Shown piece by piece: positions 1,257 through 59,884 of a stretch of DNA of 64,000 nucleotides; within the stretch, counting starts at the first letter, position 1; each line of letters begins with the position of its first letter. The translations under genes were made by a program, and so were the position numbers. Under the pieces are notes generated by a model. That model did no database searches. It worked only from the letters and a program-made list of their open reading frames with translations, and was not told the DNA's origin. Where the stretch lies: NCBI GenBank assembly GCA_036172245.1, contig JAYWIR010000045.1, positions 62,001 through 126,000 of the forward strand. Direction: 5' to 3'. The stretch is from Raillietiella orientalis. Taxonomy: Eukaryota.

Positions 1257-3329
1257 ACAGAAAGTATTTTCTGATTGATTATGAAGCTGATCAGATTTTA
1301 TGAGAATATAAATATTCTTGTATTCATTATATTAGTTTGTTAGATTAGATTAGGTTTTTAAATTACGAAAGAAAACATGAAAACAGTTGACATTTCATAA
1401 GGTGAGCTTTTTATACATTTTATAGATGCATATGTGCATTAGACTGTCAGATGGTTTACAGCACTTGTAGAAACAGCCTGTATGATGTCTGGGGTGGAAT
1501 GTTTTGTTTTGAATCAAACAAAATGATAGCAACTGTGATAGGCATATATGAAATGTAATTGAGAGTAGTGGGTTTTTTCAAAGCATTGTTTACCATGCTT
1601 TATTACTGAGCATGCATTTGCCGAACCTGATGTACTCATAAAAATCTCAAAAGCAGCTCCCTTTTTGATAAGTTTGCAGAGCAATGTATTTCGGATTTCG
1701 CATTTGCGTATGTTAAGTACTAACTAAATTCTGGCATCTCAGCATCATTATATACACAATGATTTCCATGAAATGAATGCGTATATGAGTATTGGATGTC
1801 AAATCGAGTATACAAGGTGATTTATTAGTCATACTTTGGTTTTCCTTGAAATGATGATTTCAACTGTAAAAAAGTGATCCGATTTCATTTTAACAATGAG
1901 TTAGCTCACTGAAATAAAAAAGGTAAGAATTATTCTGTATGCATTAGCAAATTTTTTTTTTTTTCTTTGTGCATTCATGCCCTCCCCCCTTCCCAAATAG
2001 TAATGAATCCATAATTTATCCATAAGCACTTCTCGTAATAAAACCAGATAGCTAAGGGAACATGAAATAATACCGTATAGTCATTTGGAGATACATGCTC
2101 ACAATACTATGTAGCTGTATCCTGTAGACATGTAGTAAAATTTCTGTTAATCTAGAAGTATGCAGAAGGAAAGTCTTGTACACGAACATACTTTTGAGTA
2201 TCTGCGAGAATTTGGAAGCAGAAATCATTTATCACATGCCTGGGAAAATGAAGAAAAACAAGGGAAACAAAAAGAGACCAAAAATTATTGAAACTGTGCT
2301 GCGTATGCATCGCCTTCAGACTGTGTATGAATTCTATTTGCTGTATTTAACACGATTTTCAGTACTTGGATTGCCAGAAGCATTTCCAAATAAACATTCT
2401 TGGATAATTGTGTAGATCTATTTCCAAAAGGCGAACATTCTGTCTTAAGTACATTCGACGTCATTGATGGTCGAAAGCTTCATTCATGTCATGTGTTATT
2501 GTCTCTGTAATTAAAGTTAGATTGTATCTTTTTAGGTATCGTTGTGTGTTTTGTCTTCCATGTATTTCTCCTTTTGGTTACGTAGTTCTTGAATATAAAC
2601 TTTATCGTTAGTGTACCATATTGTGAATAAGTATTGCAGTTATCCTTTGCATAGCTACTGTGCTTCAACTGCAGATAAATCGTTTGTGTTCTCAAGCGCA
2701 CGTGATACTCTCATTCATATGCAATTACTTTTCAGCAAAGAAAGCTAGCTTTTCTTACTTGCTTGTCCAAGTAATTCTTGTTTCGACTCACTTTTGATAG
2801 TGATTCACACCTACTCGGAGAGTAAAGCGTGTCGTGGCGTGCAGTGTTCCCACCCACCAAACTGTCCGTCACGACGGTGTGTTCTCAAAAACTTGTCGGT
2901 GCTCAAAGTGTCGATGTTGGCGAGAGAAACGAAGGGTGCTGTCGCCCTCGCCGCGAGCGTTCCCAGCTCGGCTGCGTACACTCCCTTTCGAAAAGTTGCG
3001 TGCAAGCCCTTTCACGTACGCGTGCCGAATTTCTCGTTAGCGTACTCGAAATGTTCCCATTCGTTTCGTGCCTTCGTTTTTGGGCTTGCAACCGTTCGTC
3101 CGAACGCGGGAAGTATCTCGGAACTCTGCAGAAGGCGAATTTCACGCGATCTTCGAAACGAACACTTGCCTGCGGTTTCTGCACGGATTTTCACCCTTCC
3201 GTGTCCGGTGACCCCTGCTGCGCTGCCCCTCGCTTCTTCCCTCCTTTCCCGTCGCCAAGCTCTGTTTGCTGCTGGGAATGCTCGCCAAGTAAAGAGTTGC
3301 GCTCGCTCGGACGTCGCATTCCGTCCATT

Positions 3330-4517
3330 CACAACTGTGGCTTCCATCTGCGCCAGATGGTCGCCCTGACGAGGGAGAATACCTGCATCTCCTGCCTCCC
3401 CGCGAACAGCACTGCCTGGCTTCAGGAGTCAGTTTCCGCGTGGGCTAAGATCAACGGCACGAGCGAGGCGGAATACAACTGCCTACGTCGAGGACCGTAC
3501 GCTCGACAGTCGCTGCAGGAGATTGTCAACACGCCCCGGAAGTTTCTGTGGCCTTCGTTCAGTCCCCGTTCTGTCCTCCCTGAAGAACGTTAGGAGCAGC
3601 AACGAGGGAGCATCGTGGGAGGTGTCTCCTGCCTCGGACGAGGCAGGAGAAAACCAGTAAAGGCAGCTAGCCACGCCAACGCTGCCACCCCGAGCGTCCC
3701 GCCTCACGGACTTGCGCGCTGGGGAGAGCTGCTCGCAATACCTCCGGAGGAGGTGAAGTGGCCCCCAGCGTGCTGGGATAGCGGCACCCTTCCGTTGACG
3801 TGGCAGGAGACGGCGTTGCTCTTTCTGCATTGGGGACTGTTAAGCAGAGCACGCCTGTCTCACTGGACACTGGCGAATGTGGATGCCCGATGCGTCGAGT
3901 GCGGGGAAAGGGAAACCTTCCCGCATCTTACCCTCGAGCGTGTCGCCCTGGTTGGACTCTGGAGTCGAATCGCCCCGATCCTCCATGTTCCAGTAGGCGA
4001 CCCTAAGGAGATTTACCGACGCCTCTTTCTGCGTAACGGCCTGAGCCCCGCTGCGTCTCTAGCAGTCCTCTGCTGCGTGCGCGGCATCGTGCAAAGGTGG
4101 AACGCAAGAAGAAGAGGCCAAAGATGCAGGGACGCCGTCCACCGGACGACGACCTCCTTGGAGACGGCGACAAGGTGGCGTCTACCAACAACGACAAAAA
4201 CAGAACTTGTCTGCATCCTGGAGAGGATGCAGAGGACCAATCCAGGCGCTCAGTGATCCCTTCCCTGCCCTCCACTCCCCCGTATAACTATTCCCCCCCC
4301 CTCCCGTTCTTTCTCTTTTGGTTTCTTTGTTTTTGATTTTCCCCTTCCCCCGCGCCTGGGGACACAACCTCGCCGGTCTAAGGACCGGGTAACGACAATT
4401 TTGCAGCGTGGGAGAACCGAGTGTTCCCCCACAAAAAAACATTTCTTTAAAGACTTTTATTATCTAATTTTTGTAATAAATTAGAATAAGAAATGCTCCG
4501 GCATATCCTGGTGATAA
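3330..4517 (+). mobile_element. 5'-truncated L1/Tx1-like LINE (ORF2 C-terminus with zinc finger, plus 3'UTR) nested in the H3 element
   Basis: Perfect 12-bp TSD ATTCCGTCCATT at 3318-3329 and 4518-4529. Translation LPLTWQE...CVECGERETFPHL resembles the CxxC-E-H-C finger of L1/Tx1 ORF2. In-frame TAG at 3591-3593. Homologous to many copies at 33-61 kb. Confidence 0.8.
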
Positions 4518-4762
4518 ATTCCGTCCATTGCGGACTGCGCGGCTGCACACGCCAAAAGCAAAAACGAAAACCGAACAGCCGCGTTCCGCTCTCGCCGCTT
4601 AACACGTCCGAGTTTGCCGAGAGTGTATTCTTCGCTGCGTGCGCGTGTCGGGAATGGTGTCGCCACGCCGGGAAATGCAAGGAGCCAGTGCAAGGCAGTC
4701 GGATGGAAGCGGGCACAGGATGGAAGACGCGGGGGTAATTCCGGGGGATGAACGCGGGATAG

Positions 4763-5353
<591 letters not shown>

Positions 5354-5382
5354 GCAAATTGGTCGACGTGGTGGAACGTGGA

Positions 5383-5398
5383 GGCCCTTTTCAGGGCC
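5383..5398 (+). terminator. Histone mRNA 3' stem-loop (SLBP site) followed by a purine-rich downstream element
   Basis: GGCCCT-TTTC-AGGGCC about 30 nt after the stop; GAGAAAGG about 10 nt further downstream. Confidence 0.93.
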
Positions 5399-5646
5399 GT
5401 CAAATGCCGAGAAAGGTTGGCGGTGATAGTATTGCACCCCGTGACGACCGGGGTGCGGGGTGGTGGTTACTCGCGCAGGGTGACCAGCAAAAATGGCGAC
5501 CCGTCGCGGCACGAGCGGTGCGGTCGTTCTGTCCTCTTCCTGTGCTCCTCCGGGTGAACGCCTGGCAACCCGGAGGCTCGCATCGAAGCTCCGCGACCGT
5601 GTTTCGGGGCGCTCCACGGGAAACTCACGATCCTCTTTCTTGTGAC

Positions 5647-7590
5647 TTGACGTGCCCATCCCGGAGGTCACTGCTTGCTCTTGGGTCTCCATTACTCGCT
5701 TCAGAGTTCTCACGCATCCGAGTTGCGTGTTCTTCCTGCTCAACAAACTTTTCTGATTGGATGCGAACCTCTCAGCAGGCGCAGAAAAACTTTGACACGG
5801 TAGCTTATTGAACGCATTCCGCCCCTGGCAGTGTTCGCTGACCCGTGAGCTCGAATCTCACAATCGGTTTGAATTTTGAATTTATGTAACTTATTTCGTG
5901 CTGCTAATGTCACTGGCGATTGGAGATTACACCATTGATTGAGAAAGGTAAATACTAGAGACGAATTAGGAAACTGTGTGTTAGGACTGAATTTATAATA
6001 AGGATGACAAAGCTGTCAATCGGGAATCCCATAACGTATCCTAATAGTGAGATTACAATTACGTGCTGGGCATGTAATGCAAATCTGAAGGAAAAAAAAA
6101 TTAGCAAATGTTTTGCTGCTTTAAACTTGCAGGTGCGTTCTTCGACCAGCAACTTCGTTCATGCTTCTGATAAGTCCACTTACCTACTATTTAGTCTAGT
6201 CGGAGTTTTGTAAAATTGACCCAGTGGCCACATTTTGGGGGCGTATGTTACGGCATATAATACATTTCTGAGTAATACTCGAAAAATTCGATGTATACAT
6301 ATTGCAATAATACAGCTCTGCAAAAATCGTACAGGTAATTTGCTTCCCTTGCCTCTCTTCCAAAAATACATATTTTTATTATTTCCATATTTTAGACGCG
6401 TTTCGAAAAATGCCCCGCAGATGAGGATTCCCTTTGAATTTCACCCCTGATTTCTGTTTTGACCACATGTTGTGAGGAATGCAGAAAATGCACTTTTAGA
6501 ATAATCCACCTAATACTGACAGTTCAACTTCTGAAGTGTGCACGCGGGAAACTTCAAGCATTTCTTTTTGTGCTTGTATTTTGGAATTCAGTGTTTGGCA
6601 TAATTTTCCACAACTCACTTGCAGAGGCTCTTTTTTTCCTTTCTGCGCACTTTTTCGGTATAACAAACTGCGCGAAATGCTAAGAAAATGAGTGAAGAGC
6701 CCTTGGGAACTGCAAGCATATTTTGCAGCATAAAAAAATAGCAAAGAAAAGTTTACCTTGGACAACACTTTTAAGCAGAGTCGGAAGTTTTCACTTTTTT
6801 CCTAATTAGGAATGGAACCAATCACTTCTTTCAACACACGTTTTACAGAAATGCATATCTGGTCCAGCAGTTTATCTTCACGGGATACGTTCCCCTTACA
6901 AACATTGAGATGTCCATTTCTAAAGGACACGTGTGTTTTCTGCAGAGCACCGGAATTCACATAAATTTTGTTTTCGTCACTTTGCATGTGGGGATCTTTT
7001 AGTGAAGAACGCTCGTTCTTCTGGCTTATTTCGGTAGGTGTACTGGGCATCCTTGAATTTGTTTTCTGTTTTTTTTTTTGTAAGGATCCTTTGCCTTTCT
7101 TCTCGCTCTTTGATACACTCTCATTTAAGACGTCCACAACACTTCTGCTTCGTCCCGCATGCAATTTGTTCGTGCGTTTTGGTTCCACTGGGAACTGCTT
7201 CAAACCTGACCCGGAGGTCTCTTTCTGCATCAGAAGCCACTGTTGGTATAGGCTTGAGATCTCACCTTGCAGCTGGTTGCAATAAACTTTCAATTTTTTA
7301 AAACGTTCACATACATCTGAATTATTTCGTAGACTTCGTCAACTTGTTCGCTTTACCTTGCAAGGCACGTTTGGATACCTTGGCGCGTACACGTGACGAT
7401 TTGCACTCTGGTACACCGTGTTCCCTGATCTCCTTTTTTACTTCTACATGCTTCAACTGCGCCTCGAGCCTCTCAAACGCTTCCCTTATGGCTAATCACA
7501 AAGTACAACTGACGGTTCTTTTCATTGTAAGATGCTTACCGTAATAATTGGAATAATACATTGCATTAACAAGATCCAATCGCCCTTGCA
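5647..7590 (-). CDS. Multi-exon gene of unknown function (coiled-coil/charged); probably continues past the H3 element insertion
   Basis: The reading frame stays open across short GT-AG introns (7493-7540, ~7317-7356, ~6802-6846): RLDLVNAMYYSNYY|AIREAFERLEAQLKH...|DVCERFKKLKVYCNQLQGE...|EKSENFRLCLKVLSK. Outer limits are uncertain. Confidence 0.55.
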
Positions 7591-8480
7591 AGCACAAAAA
7601 TTCAACATCGAATTGCGACTTCGCTAATTTTTGGTTGGCAGTCCGACTACATGGTTTGCTGCCACATACACGATGTCCTCATGCGACCTCTAATGACACA
7701 GATTGCTGCTTCATCAAAATAAATGCCAGGCGGTTGCGCACTTTACCCACATGGCTGCTGCATTTTTTTGCATTTATTTTCCCAGCATCAAATTAACCGT
7801 ACGTGCAGGGTGCTGGTAGACCTTGCATGTGTTCGTCACCCTCGCAAGGCATTAGTAGTGCATTGAACTATTTTGCATCTATGCATAAAGAGCAGTTTTT
7901 AACTAGCCCAAATGAACTTACCATAAGAATTGCAAGGAAAGCTTTCTATGCATATTTTTTTCTAGTTTGCAGCACATGCATGCGGAATGTAGTACTGTTC
8001 CGAAAATTTGAACTCTGGGAAAAATTCCGCACTCCGAATGAAATGAATTTCTTTAAATCGAAAAGCAAAAATTGATTCTGTTATAGAAACCGAAAAGCAA
8101 TGTATGTAATGTACCTTCCAAGTATACAAGCACTCCGATTATTTCTCTAATCTTTCAGTTTTTGTACTCCGAAAAACATATTTGAATGCAGTTTGAAGTC
8201 AACACAAACACAACGTGATCATAAAAATAACGTTTGCTCTTTTCGGTACATATCACGTTAAGAAATTTCTGGAATGAAGATTGAAAATCGTTTACAAATG
8301 CTATCAAAACTTTCGTAAATCTTTTCGTCATTCTCCATTTTGCTGCTAGGAATGGATGGCAATGAATTCCACGAACTGAGATAATTTGGAGCAGAAGATC
8401 TCAAGACCAGTTTTTGACGTCATATAGTTTTCGATAATACCTTCTAGCTTAAAACAGTACGATTATCAGTATCCTTTCGT

Positions 8481-8538
8481 CAAAAAGAAATTCTTTTTGT
8501 TCGAATTGGAAGTAAATATTTTACTTCCAATTCGAACA
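8481..8538. repeat. Two abutting perfect palindromes (9-bp arms and 19-bp arms)
   Basis: CAAAAAGAA-A-TTCTTTTTG (8481-8499) and TGTTCGAATTGGAAGTAAA-TAT-TTTACTTCCAATTCGAACA (8498-8538). Confidence 0.95.
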
Positions 8539-10562
8539 CCTGATTATGCATTCGCCAAATTTTCAAATTTTATTTGTGTCTTGCATATAAGCAGTAAATC
8601 TACAAACATTTTTCATTATTCAGGGATCGATTGAAATCATCCCTTGGCAACCTTGAAATTCATGGCGTCCGTTTGCAATATTAAATTCCCTATCATATCA
8701 TTCATTATCATTTGTAACCTCGTTAGTTCTCAGAGTGAAGATAATGTGAGCATTCTTTATATCATTTTCAAATCTTTAAACTATTTGCAGATATCAGGGA
8801 GGGGGGGGGGGAGCAGCAGAAAGTGGGAATTGGGCTTCAACATGATGGTCCAGCAGCTGCGCTTGTTTCAACAAGCAACACCCAGTTTAGAATGCATTTA
8901 TTAGCACAAAAAGGCCTTGAAGTGGAAACCAAATCTCTTTCAAGTTTAAATTTTTCAGCGTTTCTTATCAGTTTCCCTTTCATGATGTCGTGATCTTAAG
9001 GATTCTACAGTCTTCAATTTCTGGATTTAATTGTTTACGGGTCTGCTCCCTAAATTGTCCCAGTGTAATTTCGTTTCCCAAATACGTTTTCAATGTTCTT
9101 AGCCGAATGCTTCTCTTCATTCTTGTGCTTTATTTATTTTACTTTATTTTTGATTTTTCCTCCATCAAAAACAGGTTTAAAAGGAACTCGCTTAGAAACA
9201 GTAATGGTTAGCAACGAAATAGAATGCGTACTTAGTTCTTATAAACTTGGTGTGCTTTCTGTTTTGTATTCAAACTTTGAAGCATACCATTGAACATACG
9301 ATATTTTATTCGTGTATTAATCATTAATTCTGGAATGCAAGACGTATTCTTCACATACTTTTATTCTTGAGTACGTACCAAATGGTACGAATAACTTGAC
9401 TTTGGACTGACGTTGTTCCTACCAAACGTTCATTCACCTAAATTCTTATGGTGGGATCACTCTTATTGAAATCATGCAAATACTGGAAATAGACAAAAAG
9501 AAATCATGCAAATACAGACGAAATGATGGAGGAATAATTAATTAATGCAGACAATGCAATCAATCACTCGCAAAATAGCAATCCAATTCACCAAAGCGTT
9601 TTAATACTAAATTGAAGTTACTTTTTAAAGTATTATGTGAGTGGAATGTAATTAATGATAATTTATGTGAAATGATGTTTTACTTTGTAAAAATTGAAAA
9701 AAATAAATAAATTGTGAGATGGGAAGGAATTTGGCAAGAATTTGTTTAAAATGTTTCTTGAAGATTAGATATAAGACACTGTGTAATCGGCAGGAAACGA
9801 TTAAAAGCAAGGAATTTAATTGGATATCCAACTGAAAAAAAAAAAAAAGACTTGTTAGCAAAGCAAATACACATGTAATGCGAAAATTTCAGGGACACTA
9901 AAGTTCTCTTTTTTTATTTGTGATATTACTATTATCGTGTTTCCTTTCTACGGGAGAAATTACTGCATTTTACCTCCAATATAGTCACTTTGCATGTCTG
10001 AAGAACGGGTAAAAAACGAGTTTCATGGAGGCACTTTGACAAACATCAAAGTTCAAGAAACAGAATCAGACTAGACGTCTCCAGATCCTACAAATATCCA
10101 TAAACGAGCGTTGGAAGACAAAAAACAAGCACCAAGCGGTGGTACACTACTCCATTGCCAAAAGAGGACCTACTACCATAGGACGAGCAATTATGGTGAC
10201 CCTTTCAAGACCCAGGGAGTTAATTACTGAAGAAATAGAAAATTCCTAGACAGGCAGAGCACTTGAGGAATTCAAGACTTTGAATATTGAAGACTGAGGA
10301 TAAGTGGATAAGTGTTGGATGCATCACCGCCGATTACGGAAGCCCTGAAATCACGAGTCGAAAGGAATAGGCAGGGAAAAGTGGCAGAAAATCCTTCTTG
10401 TCACCTCATGGAAACATCCTTTTACGTAGGTTATAATAACCAAATGTAAACAAAAGTGCACCAGAGTTCAACACATTGCATTTTGATTTATTCTCGACTA
10501 TGATCTGTTTTTCGAAATGAGAATTCTCTCAAGAATTTTTTGTTTGCCTGCTCCTTTTTAAG

Positions 10563-10808
10563 CCGAATATGATCTCAACATCCCATCATTGACATCGATA
10601 TTCCGACTCATTAAAGGTAATAAGGACCAGCTGCTTGTGGCTCAAAAATTCTTGCTTCTTCTTAAACGATGCAAGTATAAAACATTAATGTGAACCAGTA
10701 ATTAAAGATAAACGTTGTAGAAGCAAACTGAAGACCCTGCAAGCTTATTTTACCAACCGCATTTTCTTACCACTAAATAGGTTTGTCAATCGGTGCTCTT
10801 CTGGTAAA
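10563..10808 (+). CDS. Two putative exons of an unknown gene, ending at the insertion point of H3 element copy 2
   Basis: The frame is open across a 46-nt GT-AG intron (10675-10720): EYDLNIPSLTSIFRLIKGNKDQLLVAQKFLLLLKRCK|SKLKTLQAYFTNRIFLPLNRFVNRCSSGK. Pyrimidine-rich acceptor before 10563. Confidence 0.4.
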
Positions 10809-11056
10809 GTCACAAGAAAGAGGATCGTGAGTTTCCCGTGGAGCGCCCCGAAACACGGTCGCGGAGCTTCGATGCGAGCCTCCGGGTTGCCAGGCGTTCA
10901 CCCGGAGGAGCACAGGAAGAGGACAGAACGACCGCACCGCTCGTGCCGCGACGGGTCGCCATTTTTGCTGGTCACCCTGCGCGAGTAACCACCACCCCGC
11001 ACCCCGGTCGTCACGGGGTGCAATACTCTCACCGCCAACCTTTCTCGGCATTTGAC

Positions 11057-11072
11057 GGCCCTGAAAAGGGCC
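11057..11072 (-). terminator. Histone mRNA 3' stem-loop, copy 2
   Basis: GGCCCTGAAAAGGGCC on the + strand is the reverse complement of the stem-loop. Confidence 0.93.
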
Positions 11073-11101
11073 TCCACGTTCCACCACGTCGACCAATTTG
11101 C

Positions 11102-11692
<591 letters not shown>

Positions 11693-11937
11693 CTATCCCG
11701 CGTTCATCCCCCGGAATTACCCCCGCGTCTTCCATCCTGTGCCCGCTTCCATCCGACTGCCTTGCACTGGCTCCTTGCATTTCCCGGCGTGGCGACACCA
11801 TTCCCGACACGCGCACGCAGCGAAGAATACACTCTCGGCAAACTCGGACGTGTTAAGCGGCGAGAGCGGAACGCGGCTGTTCGGTTTTCGTTTTTGCTTT
11901 TGGCGTGTGCAGCCGCGCAGTCCGCAATGGACGGAAT

Positions 11938-13125
11938 TTATCACCAGGATATGCCGGAGCATTTCTTATTCTAATTTATTACAAAAATTAGATAATAAAA
12001 GTCTTTAAAGAAATGTTTTTTTGTGGGGGAACACTCGGTTCTCCCACGCTGCAAAATTGTCGTTACCCGGTCCTTAGACCGGCGAGGTTGTGTCCCCAGG
12101 CGCGGGGGAAGGGGAAAATCAAAAACAAAGAAACCAAAAGAGAAAGAACGGGAGGGGGGGGGAATAGTTATACGGGGGAGTGGAGGGCAGGGAAGGGATC
12201 ACTGAGCGCCTGGATTGGTCCTCTGCATCCTCTCCAGGATGCAGACAAGTTCTGTTTTTGTCGTTGTTGGTAGACGCCACCTTGTCGCCGTCTCCAAGGA
12301 GGTCGTCGTCCGGTGGACGGCGTCCCTGCATCTTTGGCCTCTTCTTCTTGCGTTCCACCTTTGCACGATGCCGCGCACGCAGCAGAGGACTGCTAGAGAC
12401 GCAGCGGGGCTCAGGCCGTTACGCAGAAAGAGGCGTCGGTAAATCTCCTTAGGGTCGCCTACTGGAACATGGAGGATCGGGGCGATTCGACTCCAGAGTC
12501 CAACCAGGGCGACACGCTCGAGGGTAAGATGCGGGAAGGTTTCCCTTTCCCCGCACTCGACGCATCGGGCATCCACATTCGCCAGTGTCCAGTGAGACAG
12601 GCGTGCTCTGCTTAACAGTCCCCAATGCAGAAAGAGCAACGCCGTCTCCTGCCACGTCAACGGAAGGGTGCCGCTATCCCAGCACGCTGGGGGCCACTTC
12701 ACCTCCTCCGGAGGTATTGCGAGCAGCTCTCCCCAGCGCGCAAGTCCGTGAGGCGGGACGCTCGGGGTGGCAGCGTTGGCGTGGCTAGCTGCCTTTACTG
12801 GTTTTCTCCTGCCTCGTCCGAGGCAGGAGACACCTCCCACGATGCTCCCTCGTTGCTGCTCCTAACGTTCTTCAGGGAGGACAGAACGGGGACTGAACGA
12901 AGGCCACAGAAACTTCCGGGGCGTGTTGACAATCTCCTGCAGCGACTGTCGAGCGTACGGTCCTCGACGTAGGCAGTTGTATTCCGCCTCGCTCGTGCCG
13001 TTGATCTTAGCCCACGCGGAAACTGACTCCTGAAGCCAGGCAGTGCTGTTCGCGGGGAGGCAGGAGATGCAGGTATTCTCCCTCGTCAGGGCGACCATCT
13101 GGCGCAGATGGAAGCCACAGTTGTG
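11938..13125 (-). mobile_element. 5'-truncated L1/Tx1-like LINE nested in H3 element copy 2
   Basis: Mirror of 3330-4517, including the 12-bp TSD. Confidence 0.8.
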
Positions 13126-16100
13126 AATGGACGGAATGCGACGTCCGAGCGAGCGCAACTCTTTACTTGGCGAGCATTCCCAGCAGCAAACAGAGCTTGG
13201 CGACGGGAAAGGAGGGAAGAAGCGAGGGGCAGCGCAGCAGGGGTCACCGGACACGGAAGGGTGAAAATCCGTGCAGAAACCGCAGGCAAGTGTTCGTTTC
13301 GAAGATCGCGTGAAATTCGCCTTCTGCAGAGTTCCGAGATACTTCCCGCGTTCGGACGAACGGTTGCAAGCCCAAAAACGAAGGCACGAAACGAATGGGA
13401 ACATTTCGAGTACGCTAACGAGAAATTCGGCACGCGTACGTGAAAGGGCTTGCACGCAACTTTTCGAAAGGGAGTGTACGCAGCCGAGCTGGGAACGCTC
13501 GCGGCGAGGGCGACAGCACCCTTCGTTTCTCTCGCCAACATCGACACTTTGAGCACCGACAAGTTTTTGAGAACACACCGTCGTGACGGACAGTTTGGTG
13601 GGTGGGAACACTGCACGCCACGACACGCTTTACTCTCCGAGTAGGTGTGAATCACTATCAAAAGTATGCTAACGATGAATTCGTCACCGATGCGACGTTG
13701 TTAGCAAGAAATGAATCTATGAATTAGTTATCCTCTATGAACCAAGCTTCAGAAGTTATTTCACGAAGTATTTGGTGTCTGTAAAGCAGGCATTTCAATA
13801 TGAAATCAAGTTCCATATGCCAAGAATATATCGTAGTTGAGTGTTAATGGGAATGATTATTCCCTTGTACTTTTTTTATTTCATGTCTATCATTATCATG
13901 TACAGCACAAGACCAATATGGAACAGCATTTTTCTAGCTTCTTCAAATGTTTTCTAAGTCTCCTTAAGAACAAAAAAAAAAATAGGAATTTCCCATTTGA
14001 TGATATTAATTAAATAAATTTCCATAATATAAAGTATAGTGGGCTATGTATTGTCTCCAAGGTATGGAGCTCCTTAGGGGATGCAATAAGATTAGCTCAA
14101 TAGTTCAATCAGAGGAAATAATTTGAATGCACGAAAAACGACGAGCCATCCACTACTGTAAAAGCTCCTGTAAATCCCGGGTTTCCGAGGGGGATGCAAA
14201 GAACTTCGAGCCTCTGCAGGTGCTATGGAAAGTACCGAAAGCACTGCGATTGGGTCAAGACCTATCAAGCTCTTCTGTATACATGACGTGCCAAGGATGT
14301 CAAACGATTAGGGTATTCACTCCTTGTGAAGGAAGGAAATATGGACTATTTGAATCCTGACGTTGCTTCTTCATGTCTGCTTCGTCAAGCTTTCTTGCGG
14401 TACTCCTACTAAACGAGCTCTGGGCTGTTTCTTCGAGCGTACTTTTATATATTTAGCAATAAAGGATCGATGGTTGCGTTGACGTCGAGCAGTGCCTCGG
14501 ATGCGGTGTTTGAGATTGCAGTCTCAGGGTTTTGTCATGTGTCATGTGACTCTGATGTGAGTTTCCTCGGACGCATGCCAGTGAATTCTCCTTACTCTTT
14601 ACTCAGATATGTGGCAGTATAGTACCCCACTTCAGTACAGTGAAAGACTGGAAATCAGAAACGATAGCAGGAAGGAAGGAACGAAAGAGTAGGCGAAAAA
14701 AGACAGATATTGCAACAACGGACTCACACTCTATCCATCTGTCCCCAGCGCCTACGGGAATGGCAACCCGTCAACAAACTGAGATTCGACTTATGTAGAT
14801 TCGGACGCCGCCGTTGCAGCTGTGGTCACCGAACAGCCCTATGAAGCCAACCTCCTCGCCCACTGCAATTACTCTTACTAATGCGTTGCCAGGGTTTCCC
14901 TTACGGCTATCATCGTCATCGTCGCTGCTATTGCTCTTTCCACCCTCATTATCTGGCATTACTGAAGATCAGCAGAAGCAGATGCAACCAATTCTTTGCC
15001 CATGAACATTTTCTGCCCTTCCTCTCGTGCATTCATGGGAATGACTCGTCAGAATGGCAAAAAGTCCAATGCTGCCATATTGTTCCTTAGGTTCACTGTT
15101 TCTGCCACTTGTCTCCTGTGTATGCTTTGCACGAGCATCTTTTACATTTCCAGTATCTTTGTGTTTGAGATCGACTAGGATGTGAACACCATCAGAATCC
15201 TTATTCTTCCCTGCCATCTTCTGATTTCACTTTCCCATGACCATTATAGTAGGTTTTCGGTTTGCCTGGTACAGGACATCCAGAGGCTCATAGGTGCACC
15301 TCGGTACACCTTAGTAATCGAAGTACTTCCCACTTGTAAGTCGATCTCATTTCCATCTAACCGGCGCTTACATATACATCTCCACCTGATTCTCCTCCCT
15401 CTACTACGTATTCTTTTCTTTAAGGAAGAGAAAGAAGACGATTTAACGTTGATAGTCAAACAAAAGAAAAACATTCGACTGCAAATCAGAGACCGACAAC
15501 TCAGAAGATAGGTAAAGGTAATTTGCTATGTAGCAGGGCGGGGATAGAATGGTTGAATGTTCTTACAGTTTTACTCCTAATAATCAGGCCATCAAAGTCA
15601 GATGTAGCCATCGCGTTCACTTTTAATACAGTGAGTGAGCTCTGTGGTAACTTTGTGATCATCGGTATGGGCGATTATGTTCCCCACAGTTCCGTTTGTT
15701 TTCACTCAAAACCCAGGATCATCCGGTTGCATACACATGAAGGGTGAAAACAACCAAAACTACGTTAAACCACGTTACATTGAAAACTATCAAAACTACT
15801 AGAAGAATTCGGAAAAGAAACTAGAGAGTGATACGCGACTACTAAGAAAGCGCAAAGGAGCTGATAATGAAAGAGTTCGTATTTTATCCAGAAGGGAGAA
15901 TCAATTGCAAGAAGCCTACCAACATGGGATCATTGAATAAGTAACTTATGAAAGATGAATAGGAGTGATGTTGCTAGTGTGGATGTAGTGGTTTCGATGA
16001 GGTGTTTCGGAAGACGATGCTTTGAGAGATGCGGAAGGTTGTGACATCTTCAAGTGCTTCGCACTGCTTACGATCAAGTCCGATCGATCAACTTCCCTCC

Positions 16101-17478: not shown

Positions 17479-20028
17479 ATGATCAAAAAGAAACTTAAAG
17501 ACATATTTGGTTTTAATGACTTTAAAAGTGAAACTCAAGAAAAAGCAATTGAAGAAATAATCAATGGTAACTTTTTGTCTGTTTTCTTGTTTCGATTGTG
17601 GAGCCTATTTTAAACTTATGGCAAGCTCTTAATCTTCACTATTTATGAAATGCCATGCTTTTTCGAATTATAAAGTGGTTTGTTCTAAAGCATTAGAAAT
17701 TTGTCATCCTTTGTTTACACTGACTCTCGTTTTTTATTACTGTTAATATATATACATATATTAATCAAAGTAATGAATCAGCCCATGCATATCGTTCCCA
17801 TGCTATTCATGTTATTCGCATGTTTGCATAATGTGGCATTGAAGATACACTACAATTTCAGTGTAAGGAGATTTTCACCTATTTCAGGTAAACAAGATGT
17901 TTTTATATCAATGCCCACAGGATCAGGGAAGTCCTTGTGCTATCAGTTGCCAGCAGTTCTGGAAGAAAATTGTGTAACTATAGTGATATCACCATTAATT
18001 GCTTTAATTAAGGTTATTCCAGTTAATGTTAACATTTAAATGATTCATTGTAATTGTTTTTTTTTATAATAAAATTGTTTAAGAAATGTATTCACACATG
18101 CACAAACTTATCTCCATGTAGGATCAGCTTGATCATCTTGCACACTTGAAAATATGTGCTCGATCAATAAATTCAAAAATGAATATGACAGAAAGAAAAG
18201 AGGTATACAGCATTCTGACTAGAAAACAAACTGCTTTAAAACTGTTGTATGTTACACCTGAACAAACAGTTTCTGAAGGATTTCAAGTTGGTATTATTCA
18301 AAAGTGACAACTGTTAATTTCAATGTAGAAAATATTTTCCCATCTGCAACAATTTAAAAAATTAAAGTATATAGTAGTAGATGAAGCACATTGTGTTAGT
18401 CAGTGGGGCCATGATTTCCGCCCTGATTACTTAAAACTTGCCAATTTACATGATAAATGCAAAGGAGTAAAGTGGATTGCTCTTACTGCAACTGCTACAA
18501 GTTTGGTAAAAAGATGAGAATTAGTATGATTAATATTATCTTTTCATATTTTATCAGATGCAAAAAGATATCATAAAACAGTTAGGGCTGCAGATCAATA
18601 CTGTGATGTTTCGTACACCATGTTTTCGTGAAAATTTATTTTATGATGTATTTTACTTGGACAGTTCATTAAATGACCCAGTAGCAAATCTAAGTGATTT
18701 TATTCGAGAATGCCAGAAGAAAAGCTCCTTGTCTACAACACCTTCTGGCATTATATACTGCAGCACCCGAATAAGCACTGAAGATCTTGCTGAGCAATTG
18801 AAGAAGAAACGATGGCCTGTGAAAGCTTATCATGCAGGACTAAGTGCTTTGGAGAGGAATACTATCCAAAATGAATGGCAGGAGGATGTAACACCAATCA
18901 TAACAGCTACTATTAGTTTTGGAATGGGTGTTGATAAAAAGAATGTGAGGTAATTTACACAGGTTTATGCGTGCATCTGGAGAGGGAAATACAGATTTGT
19001 AGTTCACTGGTCTGTGCCACAATCTCTAGCATCTTATTATCAGGAATCTGGGCGTGCAGGGCGAGATGGAAAGTTATCTTGGTGTCGTATATACCATTCA
19101 CAGGAAGACAAAAAGCGTGTGGAATATTTGCTTCGTAATGATGGGGCTGAAAAGGCACTTAACAAGCATCCTGATCATGCTATCAGGAATTTTGAAGTTG
19201 CCATCAAATACTGTGAAAGTTTAAAGTAAAATTATTTGCTTACAACATATGATTTATTTGACTTTTAGATGTCGGCATGCTGCTATTGCTTCCTATTTTG
19301 GAGATGACAAACCAAATTGTAATAAAAAATGCGATGTATGTAAAGACCAGAAAGCTGTGGAAAGATCCTTACAGTACTGGAGACAACCAATACTTGGCAG
19401 TCAATTACAAATGCCTGAATCAACATAGTATGTATAGCAAACAACAGTGTTTTGTAAACAAACAGTAATGGGAAACGGCATCGGAGTATGCAAGCTTTAC
19501 AACCTCAACAAGCATTACAGTTCATACAAGAAGAATTAGCCAAAAGAAGAAAGCATAATAATGATGTGACTCAATCAACTAGAAATGACAATGCAATGCA
19601 GTACACCATCCAGGCAGCAGAAGCAAGTGAAAGAAAGATAATAGGATTGACTGCACAGGTATGTTTCCAGTACCAATGTACAAAACTGTGATGTTACAAC
19701 AAAATAAGTTCTTACACATTCATACAACAAATAATTAAACTCTGTAGACTAGACAGAACTATTTGAATTTATTACAACTGGAGATACAGAAAAATCAGCA
19801 AGTAGCTGATTCTGATATGCAGCTGAGCTCTGAACACACTGTTAGAGCTGAGTATCAGATATTTTCAAAAACTCAAGTTATCACAATGTACAGAAAGAAA
19901 ATGATGGATCTGGTAAGCATTATAATTTAGTATTTATTCCAATTTCTTGTATCATGCAGATAAAGACAATTCGTATGGCAACAGCAAATAATGTGATGTA
20001 TAAATTTTCATTTGAACCTGACCATTAA
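17479..20028 (+). CDS. RECQL5: RecQ5-type ATP-dependent DNA helicase, multi-exon
   Basis: [80 protein letters not shown], Zn-binding CRH...C...CDVC. The C-terminal IIGLTAQTRQNYL...EYQIF...MYRK resembles the RecQ5 IRI/KIX region. TAA at 20026-20028, AATAAA near 20096. Confidence 0.88.
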
Positions 20029-22480: not shown

Positions 22481-24450
<1,970 letters not shown>

Positions 24451-33174: not shown

Positions 33175-36100
33175 GTTGACACCCGGTCACTCCGGGGCAT
33201 TTATTCATAAAATAAACACACATATCGGTGGCAGAACGTTTGATCCTGCCACGTTACTTATGAATACGAAAAGGAACCTGCCAGGATCTGGCATGCAGAC
33301 CAGCAGAGTCGCTTCGACAGTACAGGGGAAGGAGTTGGGGAAGGGATCCCTGTGTGCTGGAGGGTGTCCTCTGCATCCTTGCATGGATTCTGGTAAGTTC
33401 AGGATTCCCAGATGGGACCATCTTAACACTGTCCCCATAAAGAGGACAGAAAAATAGATGGCGTCCCTGTGGTTCTGGCCTCCTCTGGCGTTGCTCAATG
33501 CAGCATGATCTTGAGTAGGCAGCAAAGTGCTGCTAGGGATGCGGCCGGCTTGAGGGCGTCGCTCAGGAACAGGCGCTTTACAACGTCTCTGGTGTTGCCC
33601 CCGGGACTCCAAGGGTCGCGGCAAAGCGTCCTCAAAAGGACCAGAGGGCAACACAGTCGATTAGGAGGTGCAGGAGGGATTCCTGCTCCCCATACTTTGC
33701 ACAGTTTGGATCCCCCCCCCGTATCCAATGATGCCAGCGGGCGTTGCACTGCATTGCATTGATGCTGCAGTGCAAAGCCAGAATCAATACCAACTCCTGC
33801 TACTTTAAGGGGAGGGTGCAGGTGTTCATGAGCACTGAAGGTCTTCCTCCGGAATACCCAGTAGCAAACCCCAGTGCAAAAAGTTCATGAAATTGAGCAC
33901 TCGGGGTCGCAGCGTCGGTAAGATCGTCCGTCGTCCACTCGCCTAGTCCTCTTTTCCTTCGCTAGATTTTCACAGTAACTTCCCATCTAGCCGTAAGGCT
34001 GCTGCCCATGTGTTCCCTAAGGGAGGGCAGAGCGGCAGCGAGGGAGGTTTTGCTTGACCACGCACTCGTCGCGGGATCTTCCAGGATCTCTCTGAGGGTG
34101 CAGTTATTGCGCACTTACAGGAAACGCCGCACCTGTTCCGCGCCTGACTCCTGGATCCTCGCACGCGCGAACGGTTTCTTGCAGCCAGGCACTACCATTC
34201 GCAGAGAGAACGGCACGAGATCCATCCCTTTTTCCTTGCCAGCGTGGCCACCTGCCGCAAGTGCAGTCCGCAGTGGCTGAGACTGCGTGGAGGGCACGTA
34301 AAGAGGATGCAAGTCTCATGTTGCCGGTGGCTTGCTGGATGAGAAGGCGCGCAGGTTGGCACCAGGTGGTGCTCCAGAGGTTTGCCACAAGGGCAAGTGG
34401 TCGAAATTGGAGCTGCAGCTCCATTCGCTCCAGCGTCAGGAGGCCTGCGCCTTTCCGAAATGCGCGAGCCTCGGGGAGGAGGCATAAACTTCCGACGCAC
34501 CTCCCCCGGATTGCGGTGGCCTTCGAAACGCCTCGCGGCTGCCCTGCTCTGACCCGAAGACACTCCCGAAGAGCTGCCGTGGCGCTGCTTCACACGGGAC
34601 GAGCTGCCTCCCTCCTCCAAGATCGCTCCATCCCTTATTGCCTCAGGGGGATCGTGACGTTCCGCAGTACCGAGGAGACATCACGATCGTCTGCAAGGAA
34701 GAAGGACCACTCACCTCAGTTCCTCAATACGAGGAGTGGTTCTCCCTGTCTGAGACATGAAGGCCCGGACTAACTGAGCGATAGTGGAGCTGGTGTGAGT
34801 TGCGAGGGACGACCCCACGTGGCAACTGCAACGCTGAGTCCCTGCCTCTTTAGTGGAGCCCTCCGTGAAAACCGTGGGGATCTTCTACGCTTTCCAAGAA
34901 ATCCGCCCAGAGAAGAATCCTTTGAGGTGGGCAGCAGAGGGCGAAGCGTCGTTGAATCGACGTGCTGCCGGGGGCATCCCAGGAGTTCTCTTTTCCTTCA
35001 GTTTCGTAGGTGAGTCCCCCCATGTTACTGGTTGGCAGCTCCATTGTCCTTCCTTAGGGGAGGCAGAGCTGCGACAAGGAAGGGCCTCCAGCCCGCCTGC
35101 CTCTTCCTGGGGTTACTGATGGTTTGCTGCAACGAGCAGCGGACGTCACCAGAGATTGCTCCCTGCAATCATCTTATGAGTTCCCCCTTCTCTCACGTTT
35201 GAACTGCCTCCTGTAACCGGGAGCTGCAGCTCTTGGGGGAGGCGGCGGAGATCCGAGAGTTCACCTTGCTCATCAGGGTGACCATCTGCCAAAGCTGATG
35301 CTCTCAACGGACCAAGCTTCAGTGGCTGCACATGTGGGAAGATCCTTGGCAGCTTGCCACTCTCCTGGAGAGAAGACGGCTGTGACGCACCGGTGGGTGC
35401 AGGTGCTGGACAACCAAGAGCTTGACCACCCATGCTTGGATGCTAGGCTTCAGTGTTTTGAATTGGAGCCGCAGGTCCGCCGCTCCAGTTTCCGGAACCC
35501 AAGTCCTCAATCCCAACGCGCTTCCACCAAATAGAGTGGTACCTCGGTACTCGTCGGCTGACTTGGATACCTGTTATTCTTCAAGATAGGGGGCACCCTG
35601 GAAGGAGGTCCGCCCTATGAATCCAGGAAAGGTTCAAAGTCCGTTCCTCTCACGCTTGGGGAAGGAGGATCGCACCTCCCCCACCCTGGTTCCGAAGGGA
35701 CGCTTCCGAAATTCAGAAGGGACGCTACAGCTTCCCGCAGGGGGATCACTCTCGCTTGCTTCCTTGCACTCTTCTGGAGAGGCGGCGACTCGGAGGATCC
35801 CCCTTGCAACAGGGGGGGTCCGCTTCTTTAAACAACTGGAGAGTTGCCCATGAAGGCTCCTGCTCCATCTTGAAACCGGAGGAGTCCCCCGGTGGGGGGG
35901 TCCGCTCTTCGTTGCACGACAGGAGGGGGAACTCCCCACTCCTTGATTCCTGGGAGGACCCAAAGGTCGACTCCCATTGTTCCGGCCTTCATCGGGGGCC
36001 TCCGGTTTAATCCACCGCCGGTGCCACGCCCGAATGTCTCGGCCAACCAGCGCCATTGCAGGAGAAACTCGGAACCCAAACGACGCAATGGCGTCAAGTT

Positions 36101-37100
36101 ATCTGCCGAAGTATTCGAACCCGCGACGCATGGTGCCACACGCGGAAGCCTTAACCACAAAGCCTCCGACGCGGGCAATCCGGAACTCGTGATGAGTGCG
36201 GAAATCGACGAGTACCGAACAAGTTCCTTTCTAGGCTTCGTGATACGATTTTTGGCCATTTGAGGACCGCACGATTAACGCTTAGAACGATTCGGGAGTC
36301 ACTCTGTGGAAGCGTTCTGTTCGCGAGCTACCATGAGACGAAAGCGTTCACTCGTTTCATCATGAGAGTGGAGTGTCGAGATCCGAGCATGCACCCAGTG
36401 TCGCAACATTTTGTTTCTAGTCAAAATGAGGCGATTACGGAGATGTCACTGTATTTGGGTAACATTGGGACATTTTTGTACCCCACCGGACTTTCCTCTT
36501 GACGTCCGCCGTTTCTTTCTCCACAGTTTTGAGGATGGGAAACCAAGAGGCGGAGGTGAGGATGGTCCCGAAGGGTTCCACACCGCGGCCCGTTAACCCG
36601 CAAGCGAAACTTGCTTTCCAGGAACAGGCCAAGCCCCGACTCTGCCTTTTGGAGGCAGCCGGCCTAAACTTCTGCTAAGCATAATTCCCCCTTCCAGCGG
36701 AACGCCAAGGTACTTAAGGCGCCTTCCCGTGTAGGCACCCAAGCAAATCCAGTACGGTCGTCTAGCCCACGCCTCTCACGGCCACTCACGCCTTCGCTTT
36801 GTAGACGAAGCCACCCGCTCCCGGACGTATCGGCTACTTGAAGGATTCCTCGGGAGATTCGCTGAGAGATGCTGCCGCGCGGTCGATGTCGCCGGGGTGG
36901 ATGGCCGCGGTCAGCAAGAACGGAAGACCGTCGGCTAGGCCGGCACGGCAGGCGGTGTGCCAAGGCACGAACTGGACAAGGTCGACAGAAGCTTGCTCGC
37001 CTCAGCACCAGCTCGAGGTCGGTGCTGAAGAGCACTGAGGCTACCTCCCAGCCGTGTGCCCCGCCTCATCGGCACCCCGCTAACGTGCTGACAGTCGCTT
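33175..37100 (-). mobile_element. Long decayed L1/Tx1-like LINE (ORF2 remnants), interrupted by a SINE
   Basis: Degenerate RT-like motifs in the expected order (GWRP ~35090, DF.KA ~34890, LADD ~34690), zinc finger DPNCAK.G at ~33700, and the family 3' tail at 33175-33350. The 5' limit is uncertain. Confidence 0.6.
35576..36176 (-). mobile_element. tRNA-derived SINE, ~600 bp
   Basis: Head GCCCGCGTCGGAGGCTTTGTGGTTAAGGC (A-box-like) ... GGGTTCGAATAC (B-box-like). Homologous along its length to 60934-61698. Ends TGAAGAATAACA. Confidence 0.75.
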
Positions 37101-58628: not shown

Positions 58629-59127
58629 TATGTTAATAAACATGAATAAGAGACTCAAGAGTGGGTTTAGGGACAGTTGTGGATAGGCTAAGGAACTGAC
58701 AGGGTAATAGCTTTTTACTTCCTCCCCACGGCTCTCTGCACGCGGGCGCTGCGCATCCGCTTCGCTCTGAGACCAGTACTCCGGTCTGTGACCTCTAGAA
58801 ATTTCGAATGATTCGAGTAGCACCAACTGTTAGCTCCAGGGATCTCACCGGCTTTCCCGGACTGTTCCACTTCAAAGCAAGCGGGCTGAAGCATACCGTT
58901 TGTCTGGCAGAATAGGGCTCGGCGATACCGCCGGGCAGGTGGCAGGAAGGTGTTGCCAGCTGGGCGTTGCTGGGTTCCGTTCGCGAGGCGTGGTCCACAG
59001 ACGAAGTACCGCGAGAACTGGTCAGGCTGGTTGTGGTAAAACAGTCCGGAACAACTCATGAAACGGAGCGAGAAAAAGAAGAGAAAGACGTAGGGGAGTT
59101 GGCGCGACTACGGGCATCTGTAGGGAG

Positions 59128-59884
59128 TTTTCATCCGGGTTCACCGGGCGTTTGTTCAAAAATAAAATGAACATTTACAATTTTTGTGCTTGGATCACTG
59201 GTCCAACCACGTCCTTTCTGTAGATACCCTGCCGTGTCACCGGTTTGCAGACCGGTGAGGTCCGCCACGGCAGCAGAGGGCAGGGGCCGAACAAACAAAC
59301 AAAAGAAAAAGAAAACGATTTGAGGGGGCTACGGGAAGGGATCACAGCCTGCTGCGGGCGGTCCTCTGCATCCTTTGGAAGATGCTGGCAAGGTCTTGTT
59401 TCATGGAGATGTGCAGGTAGAGCCATCTGATCGCTATCCTCAGAAAGCAGAAAGCGAAGTGGGTGGCGTCCCTGCCGTTGGCTTCGCTCCACGCCGCCAC
59501 GATTTCACGAAGGCAGCCAAGAGCTGCAAAGGGCTGCGGCTGGTTGCAGGGCGTCCCGCACAAAGAGGAGCCGCATCACTCCTCTGGCGTTTCAACGGTC
59601 GTGGCAAAACGTCCCCAATGGGGTCGGAGGGCAACACAGTCCATTTGGAGACGCGGGAGGGATTCCCGCTCCCCACACCTTGCACAGTTTGGGTCCGCAC
59701 ATCTCCGTGTCCGGTGATGCCGGCGAGCGTTGCACGGAAGGCCACAGTGCAGCAGCATCAACGCAGACTCCTGCCACTTCAAGGGGAGAGTGCGAGTGTT
59801 CATAAGTACTGGGAGCTACTGTAGATCTTCCACCGGAGTACCCACTAGGACGCCCTAGAGCAAAAAGTCCACGAGCGAGAGTGT
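59128..59884 (-). mobile_element. 5'-truncated LINE (copy F), near-identical to the 3' part of copy C
   Basis: Mirrored ORFs (coordinates sum to 103091). TSD core CTGTAGGGAG at 59118-59127 and 59895-59904. Confidence 0.82.

Follow-up and report, generated by a model that had tools for sequence, protein, structure and literature searches.

The subject of this report is a 2,859-bp unit that carries an intact histone H3 gene and occurs twice, in opposite orientations and with the tetranucleotide ACTT at each end, in a 64,000-nt stretch of Raillietiella orientalis DNA (GenBank assembly GCA_036172245.1, contig JAYWIR010000045.1, positions 62,001 to 126,000 of the forward strand), hereafter called the window. 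Positions given below are those of the window. Several described systems resemble the arrangement in part. Helitrons are known by 5′-TC and CTRR-3′ ends and by a 3′ hairpin. Their insertion at an AT/TT target is described in PMC10288648, which also describes Replitrons as having short direct terminal repeats, copy-and-paste movement and variable sequence past the right repeat. Cryptons, as described in PMC3212892, lack terminal inverted repeats (TIRs) and carry terminal direct repeats of 4 or 6 bp. Capture and amplification of an H3 gene by a hAT element is on record for fungi (PMC6710886). Turning to histone genes themselves, circles of the Drosophila histone cluster and rolling-circle intermediates have been documented, and their re-integration by illegitimate recombination has been proposed as the origin of histone orphons (PMC3225859). 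Finally, templated insertions at microhomology-primed template switches are given in PMC8421209 and PMC7165422 as a signature of break-induced replication mediated by microhomology (MMBIR) and of joining by polymerase theta.

An initial annotation took the unit for a candidate new mobile element with a histone gene as cargo. The observation on which that idea was built is confirmed here. The unit could be a new site-specific mobile element, but a templated patch at one junction weakens that reading, which as it stands is unsupported. We tentatively favor a single local duplication by template switching.

The Inverted Pair and Its Boundaries

The first 20,000 bp of the window contain a single long inverted repeat, the arms of which extend from bp 2790 to 5651 and from bp 10804 to 13665. 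When compared base by base over 2,862 nt, the arms show two differences: T at bp 5427 versus G at bp 11028, and G at bp 5649 versus T at bp 10806. Because of the second mismatch, the true block of identity is 2,859 nt long with a single mismatch (Table 1). Copy 1 reads gactc-ACTT-ttgatag...ttcttgtg-ACTT-gacg, and copy 2, read in the orientation of the element, is agcat-ACTT-...-ACTT-tacc. The copies are 5.15 kb apart, and the spacer between them is unique. The outer flanks of the two copies, when compared, have nothing in common beyond chance 10–12-mers.

Thus, the earlier description of a 2,859-bp unit present twice, inverted and sharp-ended, with the one difference at bp 5427 versus 11028, agrees with the base-by-base comparison; ACTT is read directly at all four junctions, and the flanks are indeed unrelated. 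A larger, diverged palindrome homogenized by gene conversion was considered as the source of the near-identity and ruled out, the flanks being unrelated.

A Templated Patch at One Junction

At the right end of copy 2, ACTT is followed by a 17-nt patch, and the AT-rich host DNA begins only past it. [quoted passage not shown] Where the unit gives way to the patch, the two overlap by 1 nt. By simple arithmetic, a 17-mer next to a junction has a chance of about 3e-7 of matching the unit anywhere, on one strand or the other. The match was also assessed by shuffling, where each 80-nt flank was locally aligned to the unit on both strands, making eight tests with 200 shuffles each. The patch flank scores 34, versus 18.4 ± 2.1 for the shuffles, the highest of which reaches 28. 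Six of the remaining seven tests fall well inside the shuffled range, and the left flank of copy 2 is borderline, at 25 versus a maximum of 26.

The patch also bears on a proposed target motif. The initial annotation had noted that the two empty sites would share CnnACTTnAC. The motif is literally present; however, the tAC of copy 2 lies in the 17-nt H3 patch and not in a host target, so the right half of the proposed motif is not host sequence. The left-hand C alone is at chance level. There is, then, no evidence for a target consensus past ACTT.

The borderline left flank of copy 2 may be a second, imperfect templated patch, or it may be chance; the case, argued from the alignment, is marginal. 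None of 300 shuffles reaches the soft-scored alignment of this flank with unit bp 3022–3041, a result from one of the eight tests. The stretch of the unit that it resembles is itself followed by ACTC. Derivation of this flank from the H3 gene was also considered and was rejected, as 30 of 2,000 shuffles equal that alignment and the segment at bp 3022–3041 is the better match.

The two copies differ in their surroundings. Past its right end, copy 1 continues into GC-rich DNA and drops to 35–38% GC only after about 200 bp; its left flank is 38% GC. The flanks of copy 2 are 33–40% GC on both sides. The GC-rich right flank makes copy 1 look like part of a longer block rather than a cleanly bounded insertion. 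The extension itself shows no detectable similarity elsewhere in the window. A by-eye match of the right flank of copy 1 to an inverted tail of a long interspersed nuclear element (LINE) proved unsupported, with nothing found at E ≤ 1. A search for a longer duplication around bp 2790 to about 5860, or around copy 2 plus its patch, found none (no shared 6-mer or longer).

A Proposed One-Off Template-Switch Duplication

The reading that we put first, and hold tentatively, is that a pre-existing H3 orphon underwent a single, recent, synthesis-dependent duplication, with copy 1 as the probable parent of copy 2. The evidence is as follows. An exact patch, templated inside the copied segment and in direct orientation, sits exactly at the right junction of copy 2. 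Copy 1 lies in a longer GC-rich block, whereas copy 2 is bounded by DNA of 33–40% GC on both sides, as would be expected of a partial copy of the copy 1 locus. The 5.15-kb spacing, the inversion and the difference of 1 in 2,859 are also in line with the proposal, since proximity and near-identity fit a local and very recent event. In addition, TIRs, subterminal repeats, hairpins, site symmetry, a recombinase open reading frame (ORF) and a third copy were all sought in the window without success (see below), and the left flank of copy 2 offers a possible second, imperfect patch.

The sequence of events may be envisioned as follows. An orphon H3 gene within a GC-rich block extending from about 2.8 to 5.85 kb, hit at an earlier time by a LINE, would have been copied once in the recent past; synthesis during repair of a break or a stalled fork would have placed the copy, inverted, at a site 5 kb distant. 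Template switching of the MMBIR, fork stalling and template switching (FoSTeS) or synthesis-dependent strand annealing (SDSA) type, closed by alternative end-joining, is the proposed mechanism. A 3′ end at the copy 2 site would first prime on the left ACTT of copy 1, possibly through a microhomology of at least 4 nt. Synthesis would then proceed rightward across the LINE and the H3 gene as far as bp 5648. There the polymerase would fall off, re-prime 543 nt back on its template with a 1-nt overlap, and copy the 17 nt of the patch, and joining of this end to the far side of the break would complete the event. On this account the ACTT pairs would represent an entry microhomology and a coincidental or pause-related exit, not the core site of a recombinase. 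The 17-nt patch indicates the polarity of the proposed synthesis, namely left to right, with a defined start and a ragged end.

Several points weigh against the duplication proposal. A segment that starts and ends with the same 4-mer is expected with a frequency of about 1 in 256 if the breakpoints are unrelated, and the proposal leaves this repeat unexplained. The overlap at the right is 1 nt, showing that the return did not make use of the right-hand ACTT, and so the coincidence stays unexplained. A family with defined ACTT termini, by comparison, explains the 4-mer repeat directly. The entry microhomology at the left ACTT is a step that we infer, and we likewise infer that there are no copies beyond the two, which were counted within the 64-kb window. 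The left boundary of copy 1 lies within about 35 nt of a transition between GC-rich and AT-rich DNA, which gives that end, too, the appearance of an insertion boundary. Finally, the unit is compositionally foreign to its neighborhood, as inserted DNA would be: its CpG observed/expected ratio is 1.14, versus 0.64–0.85 in the surroundings, and the GC content at third codon positions (GC3) of its H3 gene is 0.71, versus 0.32–0.41 in neighboring DEAD-box exons.

The force of the shared 4-mer depends on how the case was found. The figure for a random segment sharing its first and last 4-mers, about 1/256, is simple arithmetic. Such an ACTT coincidence is unlikely once, but it is not negligible in a case picked from a large scan for that very feature.

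A Possible Mobile Element Moved in Trans

The alternative that survives best, although we regard it as doubtful, is that the unit belongs to a mobile, non-autonomous family with ACTT terminal direct repeats that is moved in trans, in the manner of a Crypton or a Replitron. Two versions may be distinguished. In the first, a tyrosine recombinase would act via a circle. In the second, an HUH/Rep protein would start at the left ACTT and stop imprecisely at the right, in which case the 17-nt patch and the extension of about 200 bp would be 'fuzzy' right ends taken from parental flanks, or else scars of cleavage repair. In either version the unit would represent an undescribed kind of animal element, one having only 4-bp direct repeats, moved by copy-and-paste in trans and carrying an expressible H3 gene as its sole cargo; we consider this possible but unlikely.

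Several observations are consistent with such a family. ACTT stands at four boundaries with unrelated flanks and with no TIRs, the change to AT-rich DNA is abrupt in three of the four flanks, and the unit's composition is foreign. The presence of extra sequence exactly at both right ends fits an enzyme acting there. The literature supplies precedents: the terminal repeats of Cryptons, the variable right-hand sequence and copy-and-paste movement of Replitrons, and the amplification of H3 by a fungal hAT element, all cited above. The earlier suggestion that short terminal direct repeats without TIRs are a Crypton trait matches the Crypton description in PMC3212892.

The enzyme and its sites were sought in several ways. 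When the first 150 nt of the unit are aligned with the reverse-complemented last 150 nt, the score is 8, which 465 of 500 shuffles reach; the absence of TIRs, as claimed previously, is therefore upheld, the end-to-end alignment being at shuffle level. Subterminal direct repeats were not found, the score being attained by 101 of 500 shuffles, and the terminal 80 nt, folded as DNA in search of a right-end palindrome or hairpin, gave structures that are weak and unremarkable. The would-be circle junction contains no inverted-arm recombination site, 56 of 300 shuffles doing as well. An ORF scan of bp 2627–6015 yielded 46 stop-to-stop ORFs of at least 50 aa, two of which have a Pfam match, one to Histone (E 4.8e-46) and one, sub-threshold, to zf-RVT. 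The claim that no transposase is encoded holds to the extent that these are the only Pfam matches among the 46. No recombinase, Rep, DDE or transposase domain was found in the 46 ORFs of the unit region, nor in 148 other ORFs of the window (127 of at least 110 aa in the segment from 14 to 64 kb, and 21 near the copies). Helitron ends (TC, CTRR and a hairpin) are absent, the unit's ends being ACTTTTGA.../...GTGACTT or, on the other strand, AAGTCAC.../...CAAAAGT.

Further copies were also sought. No third copy or solo end exists in the 64-kb window when up to 3 mismatches are allowed. The exact 25-nt left and right ends have 0 matches in collections of prokaryote genomes and viral contigs, and the exact 25-nt right end has 0 matches in metagenome contigs.

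These results tell against a mobile family on several counts. Only two copies are seen, and they lie 5 kb apart, with no recombinase, Rep or DDE protein in the window, no inverted-arm site at the circle junction and no hairpin at the right end. A precise recombinase leaves no templated 17-nt patch. In the Replitron version, the extra sequence should be the downstream flank of the parent, but the patch differs from the flank of copy 1, so that this version needs an unseen parent that was inserted in an H3 gene. Replitrons, moreover, are reported in PMC10288648 from plants, algae and protists, and not from animals. ACTT itself occurs 8 times on the + strand of the unit and 241 times in the window; its presence 8 times inside the unit means that ACTT alone is no source of specificity. 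The specific proposal of a site-specific, non-autonomous element moved in trans by a tyrosine recombinase thus fares poorly, given the patch, the lack of a recombinase among the ORFs scanned and the lack of symmetry at the would-be junction site.

Other Possible Routes to an Inverted Pair

A circle formed without an enzyme deserves mention, improbable as we judge it to be. Here the segment would have looped out, or been copied, as an extrachromosomal circle closed at the ACTT microhomology, in the manner of tandem histone repeats. The circle would then have been re-integrated by illegitimate recombination at a site that has ACTT in common with the circle junction, possibly ACTTTTGA, the right side being joined in an error-prone way. 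Such a circle would explain why the same short repeat stands at both ends of the segment, and the Drosophila circles noted above provide a precedent. Also, the unit starts with ACTT-TTGA, and the host flank of copy 2 starts with TTGA after the patch. Since TTGA follows in both places, the right junction, minus the patch, would read as the same 8-mer as the left. This TTGA match, however, is a 1-in-256 event that was spotted after the fact, and the right flank of copy 1, ACTT-GACG, does not fit the 8-mer. A more basic difficulty is that random opening of a circle gives a permuted copy; to obtain the same ends, recombination exactly at a 4–8-bp junction is needed, an unlikely event unless an enzyme takes part. 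The window shows no sign of a tandem H3 array.

A retrocopy appears very improbable. In this account, an RNA antisense to H3 and ending at the left end of the unit would have been reverse-transcribed by LINE machinery, copy 2 being 5′-truncated and the patch resulting from a template jump. The polarity of the unit, fixed at the left and variable at the right with templated extra nucleotides, does fit target-primed reverse transcription, and the LINE family of the window has been recently active, two 741-nt 5′-truncated copies differing at 5 positions. But neither end of the unit has poly(A) or the family's 3′ hairpin and TGAnAA tail, and no target-site duplication surrounds the unit plus patch (no shared 6-mer or longer). 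A LINE 3′ transduction in the sense direction is excluded by the LINE's own 12-bp duplication. An assembly artifact, with one copy misplaced or duplicated by the assembler, would account for the near-identity and the short-range inversion, which are typical of collapsed or mis-joined repeats, but it is unlikely. The flanks on both sides of each copy and the 5.15-kb spacer are unique, which speaks against a fold-back chimera, and an assembler would not invent the 17-nt patch and the base difference that are private to one copy.

Anatomy of the Unit

At its core, the unit consists of 1,659 bp of GC-rich DNA that contain an intact H3 gene and are interrupted by a 5′-truncated LINE. The features of the unit and of its junctions are collected in Table 1.

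Table 1. Positions of the two copies of the H3 unit, their internal features and their junctions in the window.
Feature	Position	Strand	Basis or remark
Copy 1 of the 2,859-bp unit	2790–5648	+	Inverted-repeat search, base-by-base comparison
Copy 2 of the unit, inverted, 1 mismatch to copy 1	10807–13665	−	Inverted-repeat search, base-by-base comparison
ACTT, left end of copy 1	2790–2793	+	Direct reading
ACTT, other three ends	5645–5648; 13662–13665; 10807–10810	+; −; −	Direct reading
Templated patch of 17 nt, TACCAGAAGAGCACCGA, adjoining the right-end ACTT of copy 2	10790–10806	−	16/16 match, extended by reading
Template of the patch, within the H3 coding sequence	5105–5121	+	Also at 11334–11350 in copy 2
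Left flank of copy 2, GTGACGAATTCATCGTTAGCAT, resembling unit bp 3022–3043	13666–13687	−	17/20 over the core
GC-rich extension past the right end of copy 1, 52–55% GC	5649–5848	+	Absent from copy 2
Nested 5′-truncated non-LTR retrotransposon fragment (ORF2 C-terminal region and 3′ untranslated region)	3330–4517	+	Family alignments
Nested LINE in copy 2	11938–13125	−	
Target-site duplication of the LINE, 12 bp, ATTCCGTCCATT, left copy	3318–3329	+	Right copy at 4518–4529
Target-site duplication of the LINE in copy 2	13126–13137 and 11926–11937		
Intact histone H3 coding sequence, 136 aa and stop	4943–5353	+	Pfam Histone, E 1.5e-46
H3 coding sequence in copy 2	11102–11512	−	
CCAAT box, about 95 nt 5′ of the H3 ATG	4844–4848	+	Pattern found; putative function
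Histone-type 3′ stem-loop GGCCCT-TTTC-AGGGCC, GGCCCTTTTCAGGGCC (6-bp stem, 4-nt loop)	5383–5398	+	
Purine-rich GAGAAAGG, downstream of the stem-loop	5409–5416	+	

The left arm of the unit, from bp 2794 to 3317, is 56% GC. It contains no ORF with a Pfam match, and the ORF at bp 2826–3317 has no usable or protein-like Atlas match. The LINE fragment follows. Its translated similarity to at least five other LINE copies, located between 33 and 61 kb, begins at about bp 3312–3330. Two of the other copies can be aligned for about another 150 nt in the 5′ direction, a stretch over which the unit does not align with them; the LINE fragment is therefore truncated at that point. For the same reason, a LINE that reaches the left end of the unit was ruled out. 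The LINE ORF has a sub-threshold Pfam match to zf-RVT (E 0.0037), and its nearest Atlas clusters are also zf-RVT, with a score of 0.97 and a recognition value of 2127, under the 2300 mark. The 3′ end of the LINE is defined by aligned tails of the family, which share AATAAA, a CCCGG...CCGGG hairpin and TGAnAA; in the unit this end falls at bp 4517, the fragment ending in ...CCTGGTGATAA and lacking poly(A).

The 12-bp sequence ATTCCGTCCATT occurs in the window only at the four places listed in Table 1. That the LINE has a 12-bp duplication of its own indicates that it inserted into a pre-existing 1,659-bp segment and did so before the segment was duplicated. With the LINE and one copy of the duplication taken out, 1,659 bp are left, in accord with the figure of about 1.66 kb proposed earlier. 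Transduction of the H3 gene by LINE 3′ readthrough was rejected as well, because the LINE's own duplication follows directly after its 3′ end (bp 4518–4529). No LINE-type tail was found at the ends of the unit, and no target-site duplication was found around the unit.

The H3 region of the unit extends from bp 4530 to 5648. The encoded protein is identical to the database H3 P0070 at 129 of 136 residues (95%), and every tail lysine is retained. The ORF is uninterrupted and without an intron, and a stem-loop, the feature that replaces a poly(A) signal in replication-dependent histone genes, lies 30 nt past the stop codon. The intact H3 gene, the CCAAT box, the stem-loop and the downstream element of the initial annotation were all located, although Rfam returned no histone 3′ stem-loop match for the hairpin at E ≤ 1. 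Judged by its sequence, the hairpin itself appears canonical and its flanking context does not. These features mark an intact H3 gene of the replication type, which is predicted to be expressible.

Two long stop-free frames overlap the H3 gene in the wrong frame or on the wrong strand, one of 402 codons (bp 4603–5811, + strand) and the other of 317 codons (bp 4904–5857, − strand). Neither has a Pfam match. In GC-rich, stop-poor sequence, ORF length is no proof of coding.

Relatives Outside the Window

A search with the H3 protein, in which 8,000 candidates were scored, gave a best identity of 96% and no taxon signal; the exact protein is absent from the roughly 15 billion proteins searched. 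An H3-based search for loci in metagenomes found 79, with amino acid identities of at most 95%. When these 79 loci were compared with the unit by blastn, 83 matches were obtained, all of them inside the H3 coding sequence and none outside it.

As for the LINE tail, a word search found no longer relative. A full HMMER scan gave two matches. One is an 87-aa JGI fragment (E 2.3e-13); the other, a repetitive protein of 1,732 aa (E 2.5e-5), is regarded as spurious. The Rfam search returned only two far-sub-threshold matches, and no tRNAs were found.

The Rest of the Window

From bp 30000 to 64000 the window is occupied by a 34-kb GC-rich block, with 47–64% GC in 2-kb windows versus about 35% in the AT-rich left part. 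Fragments of a single non-LTR retrotransposon family crowd the block. At least seven LINE tails are present, made up of GTGATCCCTTCCC, a T-rich run, AATAAA, the CCCGG...CCGGG hairpin and TGAnAA, and without poly(A). No reverse transcriptase or endonuclease domain was found in the 127 ORFs of at least 110 aa between 14 and 64 kb, and the LINE copies thus seem to be 3′ fragments. A 741-nt 5′-truncated form of the LINE occurs at bp 43227–43967 (+) and bp 59124–59864 (−); its two copies have 5 differences and the same 5′ start, ...GGACTTT..., and the first of them adjoins the 3′ end of another LINE copy. The pair may be a short subfamily that became fixed, or it may stem from a further recent inverted duplication.

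The GC-rich block also contains a 205-nt direct repeat (bp 35972–36176 and 61494–61698), the copies of which are 25.5 kb apart and 97% identical. This repeat, along with further matches of the 33–38-kb segment to the 59–62-kb segment, hints at a larger duplication within the block. At bp 45405–45674 there are three diverged 73-nt units, the second and third being 71% and 62% identical to the first; two are adjacent and the third lies 124 nt on. This segment is GC-rich and has long overlapping ORFs on both strands.

To the left of the block, DEAD-box helicase exons (DEAD and Helicase_C domains) are found at bp 17689–18950 (+) and bp 22620–23641 (+), about 4 kb apart. The latter are DDX3/PL10-like, and their identity to many invertebrates reaches no more than about 60%. 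The two sets may be tandem genes, or a large intron may divide a single gene.

Comparison with Known Systems

The significance of the locus differs with its origin. If the duplication was a one-off event, the locus is a clean natural example of the duplication of a core histone gene, in which the junction scar records the direction and the stuttering of the polymerase; it would then be a useful case study rather than new biology. If, on the other hand, there is a true ACTT family, no earlier case would exist in an animal of a Crypton- or Replitron-like element that is cargo only, and this one would spread a functional histone gene. Such a family would matter for the evolution of histone variants and of the number of histone genes, and for the range of transposition mechanisms in eukaryotes.

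We know of no non-autonomous, cargo-only Crypton of this kind. The unit is like a Crypton in that it has no TIRs and has direct repeats, within the 4–6-bp range, at both termini; in Cryptons such repeats are the presumed substrate of recombination. It differs in that neither the unit nor the window contains a recombinase gene, and in that one junction carries a 17-nt templated patch. The Crypton type of precise junction, joined only via the shared short repeat, is not what is seen at the right end of copy 2.

With Replitrons, the unit shares short direct terminal repeats, an apparent copy-and-paste mode and variable sequence past the right repeat, each copy having private sequence after its right ACTT. 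In contrast to Replitrons, the unit has no Rep gene and no right-end palindrome, and its extra sequence does not come from the flank of the other copy: the 17 nt at copy 2 match the H3 coding sequence and not the flank of copy 1.

In the capture of H3 by hAT elements in Dothideomycete fungi, too, mobile DNA has taken up a housekeeping H3 gene and raised its copy number. The fungal elements are bona fide hAT elements with a transposase and are present in tens to hundreds of copies, whereas the unit described here has no TIRs, no 8-bp duplications and no transposase, and is seen only twice.

Histone orphons are lone, scattered histone genes that descend from the tandem clusters. The unit resembles them in having a single, apparently functional, replication-type H3 gene with a promoter box and a 3′ stem-loop, which stands by itself among unrelated genes and in DNA of different composition. 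What sets the present case apart is the local re-copying of the orphon, with sharp ends bounded by ACTT and with a templated patch at a junction.

The last comparison is with the products of MMBIR/FoSTeS or of polymerase theta. The known insertions are mostly tens of bp long; here the copied segment is 2.86 kb and has the same 4-mer at both ends. In other respects the resemblance is close: the event is local, inverted and recent, the junction has a 1-nt overlap, and the inserted patch is templated nearby, 527 nt from the end of the unit and in the same orientation.

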